A stretch of DNA of 64,000 bases, from NCBI RefSeq assembly GCF_055900595.2, contig NZ_CM148325.1; one strand, 5' to 3'. Below are positions 55,626-60,046 of this stretch, piece after piece. The notes below the pieces were generated by a model that worked only from the letters and a program-made list of their open reading frames with translations, was not told where the DNA came from and did not search any database. The translations under genes and the position numbers were made by a program. Position 1 is the first letter of the stretch, and every line of letters begins with the position of its first letter.

Positions 55626-55687
55626 GACGCTTACTCATCAGAAATTTGGTATGCTTTAATTAAACCAGTGTCGCTGATGTGTAAGCG
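55626..55687 (+). repeat. Copy 1 of a conserved 62-bp inverted-repeat element: two 15-bp arms around a 32-nt loop, 58 bp after the stop of the 53070 ORF
   Basis: ACGCTTACTCATCAG (55626-55640) pairs with CTGATGTGTAAGCGT (55673-55687), one mismatch; a second copy lies at 59984..60046 with identical arms. Confidence 0.8.
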
Positions 55688-56037
55688 TTGACGTTGGGAG
55701 GCGATTAAATGGTTATACCACTCCTACGCCTTTTCCAGACGGCGTATAAGAGTGCAACATGTTGAGTTTTCCGAGCGAATGGTGCATTTTACTAACCGAG
55801 CCATTTGAAACAACCAACGCAATAAAAAAGACTGGAATAATAAGCCTGTATTTATTATTCATCGCAATCGCACTCTACGGTTTTATCCTGCAGAAATGAG
55901 ACTACTTCCAGCGGTTGTGGATTATCCCTGGACGATAGTCATAGTCTGGTGTCAGGATTCACAAATGACCTGTTACCTGACATGGATATAAACACAACAT
56001 AGAGTGCGGTAGTTAATCTGAATCATCTATTTTTCGG

Positions 56038-57225
56038 CTACACAGCACAAAACAACATTATTGATTCTTTATAAGAGAGAATCTCTCCATTATTTTTATA
56101 TAAATCATTATTAAGAAAATCCAGAAGCTCTTGCCTTACACTATAAATATTGACTTTTTGGTCAACCAACGACAGTAATATATCCTTGATACCTTTTAAT
56201 TTCATATTTCTATCAGATATTGTATTAAAAGTGAAGATGATATTACGTTTATTACAACTGGAGAACCAATATTTTAGAGTATTATTCGTCCACTTTGTTG
56301 GTGTCTTAATTAGTTGCGCTGTTGTTGTTTTTACATTGTTAAATGTAGAACCGCTAAAATTTGTCCCGACGCACGAAATGAAATTCATCTCTGAATTGTC
56401 AAAATTGCAATTCTTTATCTCACACATATCAAGGTTAACATCATGAAATGTCGAATATTTCATGTTTGCATGTGAAAATAAACATGCAATAAACGTTATA
56501 TATTGCAACCTGGCATTACAAAAAGATTTATTTTTAAAATCAAAACAAAAGGTTTTTTTTATTTTGAAATTGTTATTATATCTGCAATGTAAAGAAATCA
56601 TGTTTTTTATTAACTGATAACACCATTGTGATGATTCTGGTAATTCATAGGGATGTAAATGGATGTTTTCATCGAATATAACCTGTGAGTTATGGTTGTT
56701 TATTGAAGATATATGGAAGCTATCATTTGTTAAAGCTATGGTTGTGCTAAAATTATGGTGGTGATCAGCGCTCATGAAATCAAATGTAACAATGTCGTTG
56801 TTTTCTTTCTTTTCTTTGTGATATGCGTTTAAAAAAGAAATATTTTCGAACTGTTCATCAGTTAATGTCAATGGCATTTCGTCATCAAAGAAAGCGTAAT
56901 CGGCATTTGGGACTGGAATATTTTCAATTGAGCATAGTTTTAATAAAAAAATATGAAAACAATGGAACTTATTTTTGTCAATAAGAGAACTTAATCTCTG
57001 TTGTATCTTCTGTAGTTGTCCTTTGGGAAGTAAATGCTGTAAATTTGAAAAAGAGCCATCTAAAACATATTTGTATGTAAAAAGGTCCTCTCTCTGACCA
57101 GTTATCAAAAAATCGTCAGGTATTTTAGAAAAACGATTGATATGACATAAATATTCCATTTGCTCCATGTCTATATACTTATGGGGAACTGCATAGTTTG
57201 GTGGAGTGCCAATAAGATTTTCCAT
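56038..57225 (-). CDS. Pentapeptide-repeat protein (395 aa), function unknown
   Basis: AGGTG Shine-Dalgarno upstream of the ATG at 57225; residues about 230-298 have a hydrophobic residue at strict 5-residue periodicity (F230, F235, L240, F245, F250, M255, F260, L265, I270, F275, M280, C285, F290, F295), the hallmark of a pentapeptide-repeat beta-helix. Confidence 0.8.
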   Translation of the reverse strand: MENLIGTPPNYAVPHKYIDMEQMEYLCHINRFSKIPDDFLITGQREDLFTYKYVLDGSFSNLQHLLPKGQLQKIQQRLSSLIDKNKFHCFHIFLLKLCSIENIPVPNADYAFFDDEMPLTLTDEQFENISFLNAYHKEKKENNDIVTFDFMSADHHHNFSTTIALTNDSFHISSINNHNSQVIFDENIHLHPYELPESSQWCYQLIKNMISLHCRYNNNFKIKKTFCFDFKNKSFCNARLQYITFIACLFSHANMKYSTFHDVNLDMCEIKNCNFDNSEMNFISCVGTNFSGSTFNNVKTTTAQLIKTPTKWTNNTLKYWFSSCNKRNIIFTFNTISDRNMKLKGIKDILLSLVDQKVNIYSVRQELLDFLNNDLYKNNGEILSYKESIMLFCAV

Positions 57226-57477
57226 AAATCACCTTGGTAACATATTATAAAATCTATTTATTCTAACATTGACAATATAACCAGCTATAAAAAATCGCTC
57301 ATTTTCAGATATTGCGGTTTACCTGAGGGATGATTCGTTATGCCTAAAAATTGGGAATCCAAGGTAAACACCCTGGATTAAATCGGGGGAAATGAGCTAT
57401 TTTTTATAGTCTTCACTAGTAATATAAGTAACACTTGTTGCTAACCTGGCTAGCGGTAGTGTTAATTAACAATCTAG

Positions 57478-59925
57478 ATGTCGTTATTTTTAAACACCCT
57501 AATATTGCACATCGGAGGATTTATGGTTGCTAAATTAAGATCAGATGTTCTTATAAATGCTAATCCCTTTTCAGAGGTGAAAAATGAGAAGCATAAGCAT
57601 AACGGATATTCTGACAAGGTTACTTTAGATATTAATAATAAGAAATACGATGTAAATTTTAAGGATATTGAAAATATTCTGGATGGTAATGGGGCATTAT
57701 TTAAAAAACGTACACTGTGGGAGTTTATTCGCGATCTTTTTCCCGGATCGCATATTAAACAAGTTAAAAGCTTAATTTACGAATTTGTGACAAAAAATGA
57801 TAATAAAGCGGAGATGTTCAAGAATATTAAATCTCTGGCCAAAGTAGAAGAACAATGGCGATTTAGTACTACTACAGATTTTACCACAAATGAAAATAAT
57901 GAAGTGGTTGTGTGTAGATCTTTTAATCTCTACACGGGGGAGACTGTAAATGAGGCCGATAAGCATCAAGTTTTTTCTGAAAGATTCACTCTTGATAACT
58001 ATCTTGATGATTTACATTTTGATAATTCTCCCATGAAGAGATTAAAGTTTTCTGATAATGCTGTAAAACTTACGACGCTGATTAAAAATAAAATTCCTAT
58101 TTTTGATACAACTATCAATTTAACTTCGTTGCCTAAAGATGTATTAAATTCATTAAAATATTGTAGTTTTAAAAATGTAACTTTTTCAGGAAATATAGAA
58201 ACTCCGACCCTTGAAGGCCCAGTTTTTGAAAATTGTTATTTCGAAGATTGTAAGTTCAACAACATACATTTTTATGATCCTAATGAAAAAACTGCAGAGT
58301 CAGGAAATGAAAAATCAATAATAGGTATGTTTAAAGGTTGTTTTATTTCTAAATGCGAAATAAAACAATATAGTTGTGAGACGTCTCAAGTCTACACCGT
58401 TAAACAACCCGTCAATATCCAAGAAAAATTAGGGGCTTATCTCTTTATGCAGTCTTTTGTTCAAGACTGTACAATTCAGGGAGGTAGTTGTCCTGGATCG
58501 AGTATACTTCTGAGTCATTTTTATAACTGTGATATCACAGGACTTGAAGCTCCTGGAATGAAATTTTTGGCAAACTCATTCAACAAGTCTAATAATAATT
58601 ACATCAGGGGGAGGGATCATGGGATAGTATTTAATAATTGTACTTTGAACCATATTAAAATAAACAGTGGTCTTGGTGAAGCTGGTTCAGGTAAATATAT
58701 GTTTAACCCCGTTGAGTATTTTTCTGATCGCATTGAAAGAAGATCGAGAACTCTTAAGTTAGATGATAATTTTATTAAATGTGCAGACAATATTAATAAA
58801 GGTATTAACTCTTCATATAGCAATGAAAATACAGAGAATAATAACATTTTCTTTAAAAATAGTCGTTTGCACGGGGCGGATCTGGGCTATTGTTACAGAG
58901 AGGACAGACTCGAAGGCTGTGCTATCGATTCTGCTACAATTTATTCACAAGGTAGTCTTACCGATAAAAAATACATTTATATGAATATAGACGGAGCTAT
59001 AAGTAAAGAACAAATACCTAATTTCATAAATCAGGCAGATGCTCTATATAAAGACATAGGGGAACTTGAAAAATCCTTGCCAAATACTCGGCTAATATAT
59101 GAAAAAGCATTTGCAGAATTACAGTCGTTTTTAGCCGCACTCTATAATGAAAATGGATCGTTTAAAGAGGAATTTTCTTTTGATATTGAAAAAGCTAATT
59201 TTTTTATCTTCAAAGATATGCATGGTAGGGCACAACATATCATTAACAATATGATGGGACGTGACAGAATTAACTTTGTTGAATCTGTCATAAAAGAAAA
59301 AATTTCGCAGTCAAATGCACAAGAAGATCTTAAATATTCAGAAGAATTTATCCGAAAAGAAAGGCAAGAGTCTCATAACCAATTTGATAGAAATTTAAAT
59401 TTCAAATTTAAAAATCTTGTCCACCTATTTGACGATGTTGATATAGACAAAATAGAGCTAAAAAAACAACTAGAAAAAATAAAATCTTTTAAAGAACTTT
59501 ACGACTCAGCACTCAATAATTTTGCTTTCGATTTTCAAAATTTAGCAGGTATATTTAAAATTAACAAGGAAAGTTTAACCAAATATTATCAGGAAGTAAA
59601 AGAGTCCAATGAAGGTTACGAGGACATATTGCAAAAAATTAACGAATTAACAAAAGAACATAATAAAATTGTGAAAGAGAAAGCACAACTAGTTAGTGAA
59701 AACAAAGATAATTTGACGCGTAATGATATACAAAGAAAATTAAATAACTTTAAGATTGATATTGATAAAATAGATGATGAAATACGAACTTACCAGGATA
59801 TTGTTCAAAATTATAGTCGGGAGAAAAAATATAAAAAGTATAAAAAACTCAGTGAAATAATCTTGAATATTATTACATGGTTCGATAAATATCCCGATAT
59901 TGTGAAAAATATAACCCAGGCTTAG
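57478..59925 (+). CDS. Large AT-rich protein (815 aa from 57478, or 800 aa from the in-frame ATG at 57523), paralogue of the 53070 ORF, with a pentapeptide-repeat tract; function unknown, possibly an EspX-like secreted effector
   Basis: N-terminal module RTLWEFIRDLFPGSHIKQVKS...QWRFSTTTDFTTNENNEVVVCRSFN shared with the 53070 ORF; repeat tract CSFKNVTFSGNIETPTLEGPVFENCYFEDCKFNNIHF; GGAGGA sits just upstream of the alternative start at 57523. Confidence 0.8.
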   Translation: MSLFLNTLILHIGGFMVAKLRSDVLINANPFSEVKNEKHKHNGYSDKVTLDINNKKYDVNFKDIENILDGNGALFKKRTLWEFIRDLFPGSHIKQVKSLIYEFVTKNDNKAEMFKNIKSLAKVEEQWRFSTTTDFTTNENNEVVVCRSFNLYTGETVNEADKHQVFSERFTLDNYLDDLHFDNSPMKRLKFSDNAVKLTTLIKNKIPIFDTTINLTSLPKDVLNSLKYCSFKNVTFSGNIETPTLEGPVFENCYFEDCKFNNIHFYDPNEKTAESGNEKSIIGMFKGCFISKCEIKQYSCETSQVYTVKQPVNIQEKLGAYLFMQSFVQDCTIQGGSCPGSSILLSHFYNCDITGLEAPGMKFLANSFNKSNNNYIRGRDHGIVFNNCTLNHIKINSGLGEAGSGKYMFNPVEYFSDRIERRSRTLKLDDNFIKCADNINKGINSSYSNENTENNNIFFKNSRLHGADLGYCYREDRLEGCAIDSATIYSQGSLTDKKYIYMNIDGAISKEQIPNFINQADALYKDIGELEKSLPNTRLIYEKAFAELQSFLAALYNENGSFKEEFSFDIEKANFFIFKDMHGRAQHIINNMMGRDRINFVESVIKEKISQSNAQEDLKYSEEFIRKERQESHNQFDRNLNFKFKNLVHLFDDVDIDKIELKKQLEKIKSFKELYDSALNNFAFDFQNLAGIFKINKESLTKYYQEVKESNEGYEDILQKINELTKEHNKIVKEKAQLVSENKDNLTRNDIQRKLNNFKIDIDKIDDEIRTYQDIVQNYSREKKYKKYKKLSEIILNIITWFDKYPDIVKNITQA

Positions 59926-59983
59926 CTAAGCAGAGAGTGATTGACTGGACGAATAACGACATAAATTTTTGAAAGGGAAACAT

Positions 59984-60046
59984 ACGCTTACTCATCAGAC
60001 ACTTGGTAGTCTTTATCTCAAACCAGCGTGACTGATGTGTAAGCGT
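59984..60046 (+). repeat. Copy 2 of the conserved inverted-repeat element, in the 136-bp gap between the 57478 ORF and convergent yieH
   Basis: Arms ACGCTTACTCATCAG (59984-59998) and CTGATGTGTAAGCGT (60032-60046) are identical to copy 1, while the loop differs at about a third of positions. Confidence 0.8.

Follow-up and report, generated by a model that had tools for sequence, protein, structure and literature searches.

In Rho-dependent E. coli transcripts, stable 3'-terminal stem-loops that lack a U-tract have been described as exonuclease barriers (Dar and Sorek 2018, PMC6061677). Canonical intrinsic terminators are recognised by about 5 or more U in the 8 nt directly after the stem and by a compact GC-rich stem with a loop of 3-8 nt. 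We analysed two related hairpins, HP1 and HP2, that lie behind two putative type III effector genes (espY) in a 64,000-nt stretch of E. coli DNA (contig NZ_CM148325.1 of assembly GCF_055900595.2), called the window in the following. The features of the region are:

53184..55568, + strand: gene of the EspY5-like putative type III effector (start as annotated in identical RefSeq genomes; longest ORF from 53049)
55569..55626, + strand: spacer from the espY5-like stop to HP1, 58 nt, unalignable with the equivalent copy-2 spacer
55627..55688, + strand: HP1 (hairpin copy 1), 62 nt; covariance model 88 bits, E=1e-18
55689..55925, - strand: gene remnants after HP1, yieH' fused to cbrC'
55814-55737, - strand: yieH' remnant (C-terminus and stop, aa 106-130)
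55923-55816, - strand: cbrC' remnant (aa 14-49)
56038..57225, - strand: gene of the EspX3-like pentapeptide-repeat protein, 395 aa, with weak Qnr-type pentapeptide matches
57523..59925, + strand: gene of the EspY4-like putative type III effector (longest ORF from 57478)
59926..59983, + strand: spacer from the espY4-like stop to HP2, 58 nt, 21-24% diverged from other E. coli lineages
59984..60046, + strand: HP2 (hairpin copy 2), 63 nt; covariance model 85.8 bits, E=4e-18
60047..60061, no strand assigned: spacer from HP2 to the yieH stop, 15 nt, sharing homology with the stretch that follows HP1 (TGAMGTWRGGAGRCGATTA in most strains)
60062..60727, - strand: yieH (6-phosphogluconate phosphatase), convergent with espY4

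The region corresponds to the E. coli "Z-locus" (Z5211-Z5214), which lies between phoU and yieH and contains EspY5-like, EspX3-like and EspY4-like genes. The name EspY5-like was given by position and from the Sakai table (PMC5931665). Amino-acid identity is 33% for the two EspY paralogues, and between the EspY4-like protein and the common EspY4 of E. coli it is only about 61%. Both genes lie within an island of 30% GC that the literature regards as horizontally acquired and probably H-NS-silenced (PMC2646131), and the yieH gene of the window is an island-linked allele with only about 80% nucleotide identity to K-12 yieH. Neither paralogue has a model in NCBIfam. The family does not extend beyond this locus: a search of 1.84 billion representatives gave 36 matches, just three being full-length and all being of the EspY4 or EspY5 type, and the homologues carried the names of E. 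coli, Shigella and E. albertii only. A diversity-generating retroelement behind the hypervariability of espY was rejected, the sole RT-associated signal checked being an Rfam RT-6 match at noise level (E=0.54). A small ORF after HP1 (Shine-Dalgarno-like GGGAGG and an ATG at 55709, 18 codons) is absent as a conserved feature at copy 2 and was therefore treated as incidental.

The protective stem-loops of Rho-dependent transcripts (PMC6061677) resemble our hairpins in being stable 3'-UTR structures with no U-rich tail on the espY strand, located soon after the stop codon and before untranslated antisense sequence. Our hairpins differ from them in an espY-strand downstream region that is not C-rich and G-poor, in an unusually long stem of about 22 interrupted pairs with a 13-14-nt loop, and in forming two conserved paralogous copies. 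With intrinsic or bidirectional terminators between convergent genes they share the location, HP2 sitting in the 136-nt gap that separates convergent stop codons. An A-run precedes copy 1, which gives a U-run after it on the - strand as in bidirectional terminators. However, there is no + strand U-tract, copy 2 has only a weak one on the - strand, and the loop is far above the canonical size. Like REP/BIME and ERIC (IRU) elements, the hairpin is an imperfect palindrome in an intergenic 3' flank and may be an exonuclease barrier, but it is not dispersed, and neither its sequence nor Rfam links it to any of these families. Our hairpins recall integron attC sites and other single-stranded DNA recombination hairpins: each 'cassette-like' gene has one on its 3' side, the structure is imperfect and about 60 nt long, it has a conserved mismatch as well as a bulge, and its conserved arms enclose a variable centre. 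Unlike attC, the element showed no R''/R' core motifs on inspection, since neither RYYYAAC nor GTTRRRY is present where the arms end; it is accompanied by neither an integrase nor a cassette array, and it never occurs outside this chromosomal site. No integrase was annotated within 8 kb in six genomes.

The two 15-nt arms, ACGCTTACTCATCAG and CTGATGTGTAAGCGT, are the same in HP1 and HP2; apart from a single T.T mismatch they pair along their whole length (14 of 15 positions). From the outside, HP1 consists of an 8-bp helix, the T.T mismatch, a 6-bp helix, an internal loop, 2 pairs, a bulge, a 5-bp helix of (C/T)TGGT/ACCAG and a 13-nt loop. HP2 shares this architecture, except that it has an inner helix of 3 bp, CAC/GTG, and that its loop is 14 nt long. 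The earlier note on this DNA had described a loop of 32-33 nt between the arms. The size is right (32 nt in HP1, 33 nt in HP2), but this interior is largely a second helix; it holds the conserved CTGGT/ACCAG helix and 2-3 further pairs, and therefore the true loop measures only 13-14 nt and is AU-rich. The coordinates given there for copy 2 were confirmed, whereas copy 1 lies one base further to the right, at 55627-55688. With up to 3 mismatches allowed, the arm pattern matched the window 5 times, where 1.1 matches were expected; as many as 5 were not seen in any of 100 shuffles, so the pattern exceeds chance.

Both copies fold, as had been proposed for checking. On the + strand the folding energies were -25.5 kcal/mol for HP1 (z -4.3) and -28 kcal/mol for HP2 (z -5.8), and on the - strand the z-scores were -4.3 and -4.9. 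Folded as DNA, the hairpins gave z-scores of -5.0 and -5.9. Both alone and inside a 150-nt context the structure is stable and highly non-random. Over 19 distinct haplotypes 97% of cells were paired, compared to 22-39% when the partners were slid by 1-3 columns. As to a larger structure around the hairpin, an outer helix between the 3' UTR and the downstream spacer was predicted for copy 1 in two strains, but the predictions for copy 2 were inconsistent.

The element was found in 1108 of 5426 complete E. coli genomes, in 1-2 places per genome that were all chromosomal. It is confined to this island, and its carriers are island-bearing genomes only, so a generic dispersed repeat is ruled out and the absence of a REP- or IRU-type scatter, on which the earlier proposal depended, was borne out. 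Within the window the covariance model hit HP1 and HP2 and nothing else, and the K-12 locus gave no hit. Homology to the K-12 yieH-cbrB hairpin was unsupported, with 8 of 15 arm positions identical and a covariance model score of 11 bits (E about 4). An Rfam E-value search of 52000-62000 matched nothing at either hairpin; elsewhere in the region it returned naRNA4 at 52654-52715, below the gathering score, and the RT-6 match. The hairpin was not found in viral contigs. When 100,044 species reference genomes were scanned with degenerate arms, the sole hits came from one 'Collinsella' metagenome-assembled genome, on two of its contigs. These contigs align to the E. coli island of the window at 82-95% identity and are most likely E. 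coli contamination; apart from them, the hairpin was absent from the reference genomes of other species. It is unannotated in RefSeq and unmentioned in the paper describing the island (PMC2646131).

HP1 and HP2 each begin 58 nt past an espY stop codon (55566-55568 and 59923-59925), in agreement with the proposal of an element duplicated 3' of each paralogue. The repeated unit, however, is not simply the 3' flank of the paralogue. On the espY side the identity between the copies is low and chance-like; the homology begins at the hairpin and runs on into the yieH 3' end on the opposite strand, which is intact after HP2 and a decayed remnant after HP1. The duplication thus covers the hairpin together with the yieH 3' end, and the alignments indicate that this unit was placed beside two old, very divergent espY genes. 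Between the copies the arms are identical at 30 of 30 positions, as claimed before, and the interior at 23 of 33 (about 30% diverged), close to the third that had been stated. The downstream spacer is identical at 14-16 of 19 and the yieH tail at 25-26 of 55 positions. Overall, the alignable flanks are about 46-84% identical, so that arm identity does exceed that of the flanking DNA; given a background identity of 75%, the probability of 30/30 is about 2e-4.

Across lineages the hairpin differs at 3-8% of positions and both adjoining spacers at 23-26%. For copy 2, comparison of the window lineage with five other lineages gave 2-5 differences in 63 hairpin positions versus 16-19 in 74 positions of the adjoining spacers (Fisher p 0.0009-0.012). 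Since the arms exceed the interior and every flank, and the hairpin is a conservation island across lineages, selection on the stem is the right inference, and the comparisons show that the stems are under purifying selection. HP1 is intact although the adjoining yieH remnant has decayed, so HP1 is maintained independently of yieH. Compensatory double substitutions were not seen: among the 19 haplotypes no pair had changed on both sides, so the covariation analysis shows kept pairing only, and the structure is deduced from conservation together with changes of the wobble type. Arm identity without covariation and the C>T change shared by both copies are compatible with a cis element dedicated to the EspY pair, and do not require one. 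The earlier note had left the choice between a selected stem and a palindromic protein-binding site. The stem is favoured; a binding site on double-stranded DNA is the least favoured of its options, because the tolerated stem changes are of the G.U type on one strand and the complementarity spans about 22 interrupted pairs.

Almost every polymorphism in the stems is a C>T change facing a G, and the resulting G.U pairs are kept only on the espY-sense strand. Seven independent changes of this kind give G.U in the + strand RNA and A.C on the - strand. One stem change, a T>C at the terminal pair, goes in the opposite direction, and neither G>A nor A>G occurred in the stems. In the flanks no such bias was seen (C>T 41 versus G>A 57). 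The binomial p for the bias is about 0.008-0.06 depending on the treatment of the terminal pair, with 8 events of which some are singletons from low-coverage metagenome contigs. In addition, a T>G at the mismatch position makes a G.U pair on the + strand, and the variants weaken the - strand fold more (-18 to -31 kcal/mol) than the + strand fold (-23.5 to -31 kcal/mol). HP1 was assigned to the + strand because this pattern favours the espY sense; its complement folds too.

On the + strand the stems are followed by UGACGUUG and UAAAGUUC, with no U-tract, so the view that the element is not a canonical intrinsic terminator stands for this strand. The claim that neither copy is followed by a U-tract did not hold on the - strand, where HP1 is followed by CUUUUCGU, which has 5 U in 8 and would pass the U-run threshold. 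All copy-1 haplotypes have kept the A-run that encodes this tail. After HP2 the - strand tail is AUGUUUCCCUUUC in the window and the poor, unconserved CUAUUCCCU in most strains; copy-2 tails of AUGUUUCC or CUAUUCCC fail the threshold. The stem is not compact or GC-rich, with about 22 interrupted pairs and arms of 47% GC. A consensus terminator scan called neither strand, and it could not do so because the 13-14-nt loop exceeds its 3-8-nt limit. Directly downstream, rut-like (C-rich, G-poor) sequence is found only on the - strand, which is U-rich, G-poor and has C>G (C/G 1.5-2.3), and not on the + strand (C/G 0.73-1.22 over 40-120 nt). The - strand downstream composition and the copy-1 U-run fit the opposite strand better than the espY sense.

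We favour, at a probability of about one half, a selectively maintained RNA stem-loop that would chiefly protect and define the 3' ends of espY-sense transcripts. The stem-loop occupies a short convergent gap with espY on one side and yieH (copy 2) or the yieH remnant (copy 1) on the other. As a hairpin without a U-tract in the espY 3' UTR, stable past the stop codon at -23.5 to -31 kcal/mol, it would define the mRNA 3' end and shield it against 3'-to-5' exonucleases. Before this protection, transcription would stop farther downstream, either by Rho acting on the untranslated antisense-yieH RNA or by collision with convergent transcription. The complement folds as well and may also stop or stabilise transcripts of the opposite strand, yieH at copy 2 and espX3 at copy 1. 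Term-seq data exist for O157:H7 Sakai (PMC7547250), with dRNA-seq under GSE143631 and the Term-seq accession printed as 'GSE14363'.

The opposite strand might itself be the functional one, with the hairpin as a terminator or 3'-end structure of yieH (copy 2) and espX3 (copy 1) that blocks antisense transcription running into espY. The yieH stop is 15 nt from HP2 and a yieH 3' end flanks each copy, and the good - strand fold, the conserved U-run after HP1 and the rut-like downstream sequence all agree with such a role. Yet 7 of the 8 wobble-type stem substitutions are A.C mismatches on that strand, the copy-2 tail is poor in most strains, HP1 is fully conserved despite a dead yieH with the espX3 stop codon 350 nt upstream on the - strand, and the terminator scan made no call; we regard this role as doubtful. 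It is unlikely that the hairpin is a sequence-specific cis element for the EspY pair, be it a site for an RNA-binding protein or RNase III that co-regulates both mRNAs or a DNA anchor for swapping and stacking divergent espY alleles.

A function in DNA more generally, as a cruciform or single-stranded hairpin, a recombination anchor for espY exchange and tandem stacking, a palindromic protein site or an operator, appears quite improbable. The hairpin does lie at the border between hypervariable espY alleles and conserved flanks and at the left end of the homology common to both modules, its arm sequence is conserved without covariation, and the DNA fold is non-random. But, sporadic IS insertions aside, neither the island nor the DNA beside it encodes a recombinase, integrase or transposase, the arms lack the attC core motifs, and just two copies exist per genome with none on plasmids or viral contigs. 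The divergent tract of the window lineage crosses the hairpin up to the yieH stop, so the hairpin was not the breakpoint there. With 32 nt and an inner helix between them, the arms do not resemble a dimer operator, and the one-strand wobble bias is unexpected for double-stranded DNA. Very improbable, finally, is a relic with no current function, whose arm identity would come from chance, short-tract gene conversion or intrastrand templated repair. It would fit the mere two copies and the lack of covariation, and the identical C>T in HP1 and HP2 of the window lineage could be a conversion event. The interiors, however, are stably copy-specific in all strains, so that conversion would need to hit only the two 15-nt arms; conservation is also seen across lineages within one copy, next to spacers diverged by 23-26% on both sides; and intrastrand repair would erase the T.T mismatch, which both copies keep.

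Taken together, the hairpin most likely marks and protects transcript 3' ends between convergent genes and is an ordinary kind of element, opening no new class. The effector island evolves fast, is AT-rich and occurs in about a fifth of complete E. coli genomes, O157:H7 among them; no other non-coding feature of this island is as conserved as the hairpin. The flanks of the hairpin record how the island was assembled, as two 'espY-hairpin-yieH 3' end' modules in tandem. If the hairpin sets the 3' ends or the stability of the espY4 and espY5 mRNAs, or insulates yieH from these mRNAs, it would be a small, testable piece of how effector genes acquired by horizontal transfer are fitted in beside a housekeeping gene.

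Direct reading of the sequence located an imperfect inverted repeat in two copies, each 3' of a large espY-like gene:

HP1, 55627-55688, + strand, 62 nt, 3' of the espY5-like gene
HP2, 59984-60046, + strand, 63 nt, 3' of the espY4-like gene

The earlier note had placed HP2 exactly and HP1 one base too far to the left. Its observation that the arms are the same in both copies was borne out, since HP1 and HP2 each carry ACGCTTACTCATCAG and CTGATGTGTAAGCGT. The arms pair at 14 of 15 positions, with a T.T mismatch inside. When up to 3 mismatches were allowed, the arm pattern matched 5 times in the window against 1.1 expected matches, and none of 100 shuffles reached 5. 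RNA folding of the + strand gave a long interrupted hairpin for both copies (HP1, -25.5 kcal/mol, z -4.3; HP2, -28 kcal/mol, z -5.8), and the complement folded almost equally (z -4.3 and -4.9, respectively). The 32-33 nt between the arms, previously taken as all loop, contain the conserved helix CTGGT/ACCAG and 2-3 further pairs, leaving an AU-rich apical loop of only 13-14 nt. An outer helix enclosing HP1 was predicted between GAUCAAGUCGUUCCU in the 3' UTR (55588-55602) and the conserved GGGAGGCGAUUAAAUGGUU after the hairpin (55696-55715). A G/A polymorphism in this helix is common at copy 1, and on the + strand both bases can pair with the U opposite; at copy 2 no such helix was predicted consistently.

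The window comes from an E. coli lineage whose pst genes are ~96% identical to those of K-12. Its phoU-yieH interval holds the Z-locus (Z5211-Z5214), where K-12 has the bgl-yieLK-cbrCB island. The Z-locus has been described in ~19% of strains as a set of ORFan genes with ~30% GC, and that description does not mention any hairpin (PMC2646131). The two large paralogues match the putative type III effectors EspY5, which adjoins phoU, and EspY4, which adjoins yieH; the gene that separates them runs on the opposite strand and encodes the pentapeptide-repeat protein EspX3 (nomenclature of the Sakai table in PMC5931665). EspY5 and EspY4 share 33% amino-acid identity, and their DNA can be aligned in the N-terminal part only. 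The island-linked yieH (60062-60727) has only ~80% nucleotide identity to K-12 yieH (3775-4440 of the K-12 locus) and is therefore part of the exchanged segment. The exchange between bgl-type and Z-type strains thus extends beyond the genes between phoU and yieH, with pst on the far side at ~96%. The left island border is marked by a REP-like element directly after phoU (52654-52715; Rfam naRNA4/CssrE, 35 bits, below the gathering score), where the K-12 homology ends (~52629).

Some strains have an island eroded by insertion sequences. In one version of the locus (L005), an IS1 occupies 3971-4668, the site from which espY5, HP1 and a portion of espX3 have disappeared, and in another (L006) an IS2 at 5705-6933 interrupts espY4. 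The pentapeptide-repeat gene is shortened in O157:H7 (EspX3'), and espY5' is listed as a pseudogene in Sakai. Sakai ECs4653-ECs4657 (espY4, espX3', espY5') and EDL933 Z5214 were reported to be induced by trimethoprim-sulfamethoxazole or antibiotic treatment (PMC5931665, PMC4048457), and Term-seq and dRNA-seq data exist for O157:H7 Sakai (PMC7547250; GEO GSE143631 for the dRNA-seq set). In Sakai the hairpins are found 57-58 nt beyond the stop codons of ECs4653 (espY4) and ECs4657 (espY5'), at a distance of 15 nt from the yieH stop.

A sensitive BLAST search found the hairpin in 1108 of 5426 complete E. coli genomes, at 1 or 2 places per genome and never on a plasmid. It is thus not the scattered generic repeat that the earlier note had considered. 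The count of 1108 agrees with the 1088 genomes in which most of the island is present, and in the matched complete genomes no annotated feature covers the hairpin. For other species, one genome each of 100,044 species was scanned with degenerate arms, and only two contigs, both from one 'Collinsella' metagenome-assembled genome, were found. Since both align to the E. coli island of the window at 82-95% identity, contamination with E. coli is their most likely origin. The hairpin was not found in viral contigs. No Rfam family was detected at either copy, and in the 64-kb window a covariance model built from 19 hairpin haplotypes matched nothing but HP1 and HP2. K-12 has another long hairpin directly after yieH, in the yieH-cbrB gap (4452-4498 of the K-12 locus, ACTCCCTTCACTTACC...GGTAAGTAAAGGGAGT), whose 3' arm reaches into the ribosome-binding site of cbrB. 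Homology of this hairpin to HP1 and HP2 was not detectable (covariance model 11 bits, E ~4).

As the earlier note had described, the element is repeated 3' of each paralogue. In both copies it starts 58 nt after the espY stop codon. The homology between the copies, however, starts with the 5' edge of the hairpin and extends rightward into yieH, not leftward. After HP2 comes a 15-nt spacer, which ends at the stop codon of yieH, the convergent gene. After HP1, the same spacer leads into a decayed yieH in three pieces, which together lie within 55689-55925 on the - strand:

yieH remnant with the C-terminal codons and the stop
yieH' codons 106-130, beyond a deletion, 81% amino-acid identity to the YieH of the window
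cbrC' codons 14-49, fused directly to yieH', 61% identical to K-12 CbrC

The order of the remnant, cbrC then yieH, is not that of K-12 (yieH-cbrB-cbrC) and suggests that an old duplication or rearrangement left a joint here. The 58-nt espY-side spacers of the two copies could not be aligned. The island thus consists of two tandem modules, 'espY - 58 nt - hairpin - 15 nt - yieH 3' end', the first of which has lost its yieH. We infer that EspY4 and EspY5 were originally very divergent alleles at one site beside the hairpin and yieH, and that they were stacked later by unequal or illegitimate exchange within yieH; this would also account for the identical 58-nt spacing. The espY variation at this locus is extreme among E. 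coli lineages, with the nucleotide identity per 100 nt falling to 45-70% between flanks of 95-99%, and the EspY4-like protein of the window has ~61% amino-acid identity to the common EspY4. The pattern resembles an old allelic polymorphism or repeated replacement of alleles. Compared with four other versions of the locus (L002-L004, L008), the divergence of espY5 (53184-55568) and espY4 (57523-59925) rises toward their 3' halves. On the + strand at 55696-55765, antisense to the yieH remnant, a Shine-Dalgarno-like GGGAGG is followed 7 nt on by the ATG of an 18-codon ORF, MVIPLLRLFQTAYKSATC; this ATG is missing at copy 2.

The arms of HP1 and HP2 are identical at 30/30 positions and the interior at 23/33, in agreement with the divergence of about one third reported for it before. 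The arm identity exceeds that of the flanking DNA, where 14-16 of 19 positions are identical in the stop and spacer, 25-26 of 55 between the last 55 nt of yieH and the remnant, and the espY-side flank shows a low, chance-like identity. The chance of 30/30 arms is ~0.003 at a generous background of 82% and ~2e-4 at 75%. At copy 2, the window lineage differs from five other lineages at 2-5 of 63 hairpin positions, against 16-19 of 74 in the 58-nt and 15-nt spacers (Fisher p 0.0009-0.012). HP1 is intact beside its wrecked yieH, so its upkeep is independent of yieH. The window lineage has a C>T (CTGG to TTGG, G.U on the + strand) in both copies, at 55646 and 60003, positions that are both C in most other strains; parallel change, a short gene conversion or coincidence could explain it.

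Complete genomes and 46 metagenome contigs, fished with an anchor lying mostly outside the stem, yielded 75 hairpin sequences with 19 distinct haplotypes. The proposed structure leaves 97.1% of cells paired, compared with 22-39% after the partners were slid by 1-3 columns. Among the 19 haplotypes, 13 pairs are invariant, 7 vary on one side only and stay paired, and none has a compensatory double change. The covariation sought across strains was thus not seen, because the divergence among the haplotypes is too shallow. The stems show seven independent C>T changes opposite G:

CTGG>TTGG, in each copy (HP1 and HP2)
CTGATG>TTGATG and CATCAG>CATTAG, in copy 1
GCGT>GTGT, ACCAG>ACTAG and ACCAG>ATCAG, in copy 2

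Each of the seven gives G.U in the espY-sense RNA and A.C in its complement. A single T>C was found in the opposite direction, in the terminal pair, and no G>A or A>G within the stems of the collected hairpins. A G.U pair on the + strand also arises through a T>G at the T.T mismatch, and three transversions each disrupt a pair on both strands. In the flanks C>T is not in excess (41, against 57 G>A), and the p value for the strand bias ranges from ~0.008 (7/7 internal pairs) to 0.06 (7/8, flank-derived rate). The variant haplotypes keep -23.5 to -31 kcal/mol on the + strand and fall to -18 on the - strand. This pattern of substitutions and folds favours, without being decisive, a role as RNA in the espY sense.

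The hairpin is not a canonical intrinsic terminator on the espY strand, as the earlier note had argued, because no U-tract follows (UGACGUUG and UAAAGUUC); it also differs from such terminators in its loop, which is not compact. A consensus terminator scan did not call it on either strand, with a loop limit of 3-8 nt that excludes the 13-14-nt loop anyway. We assign a probability of about 0.5 to a role at the 3' end of espY-sense RNA, possibly bidirectional. The espY transcript would run past the hairpin into untranslated antisense-yieH RNA, which would be a natural Rho substrate, and would then be trimmed back to the stem, which would shield the 3' end. Just downstream on the espY strand, a rut-like C-rich, G-poor stretch is absent (C/G 0.7-1.2).

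A serious rival is that the hairpin mainly serves the opposite strand as a terminator of yieH and espX3, because the sequence downstream on that strand is C-rich and G-poor (C/G 1.5-2.3), with CUUUUCGU as the tail of HP1. We consider it unlikely overall; the seven C>T stem changes are A.C mismatches on this strand. The two roles are not mutually exclusive. A role at the DNA level, such as the palindromic protein-binding site suggested before, is improbable, and the one-sided stem changes speak, though not decisively, against a double-stranded DNA palindrome. A hairpin without function is slightly less probable again, and other sequence-specific roles take the remainder.

Among known families, dispersed repeats differ from the hairpin in copy number and family match. 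The core motifs of attC-type sites were not seen on reading its sequence, and no recombinase was found within 8 kb of it in six genomes. Stable 3' stem-loops without a U-tract were reported to mark the steady-state 3' ends of Rho-dependent E. coli transcripts and to protect them against PNPase and RNase II (PMC6061677). These appear to be the best-fitting known class; the hairpin shares their structural and positional features but lacks the rut feature on the espY strand. In conclusion, the hairpin is probably best filed as a previously unannotated case of a 3'-end stem-loop between convergent genes, a general class in which it stands out by being long, by occurring in two conserved copies and by being confined to a single effector island.
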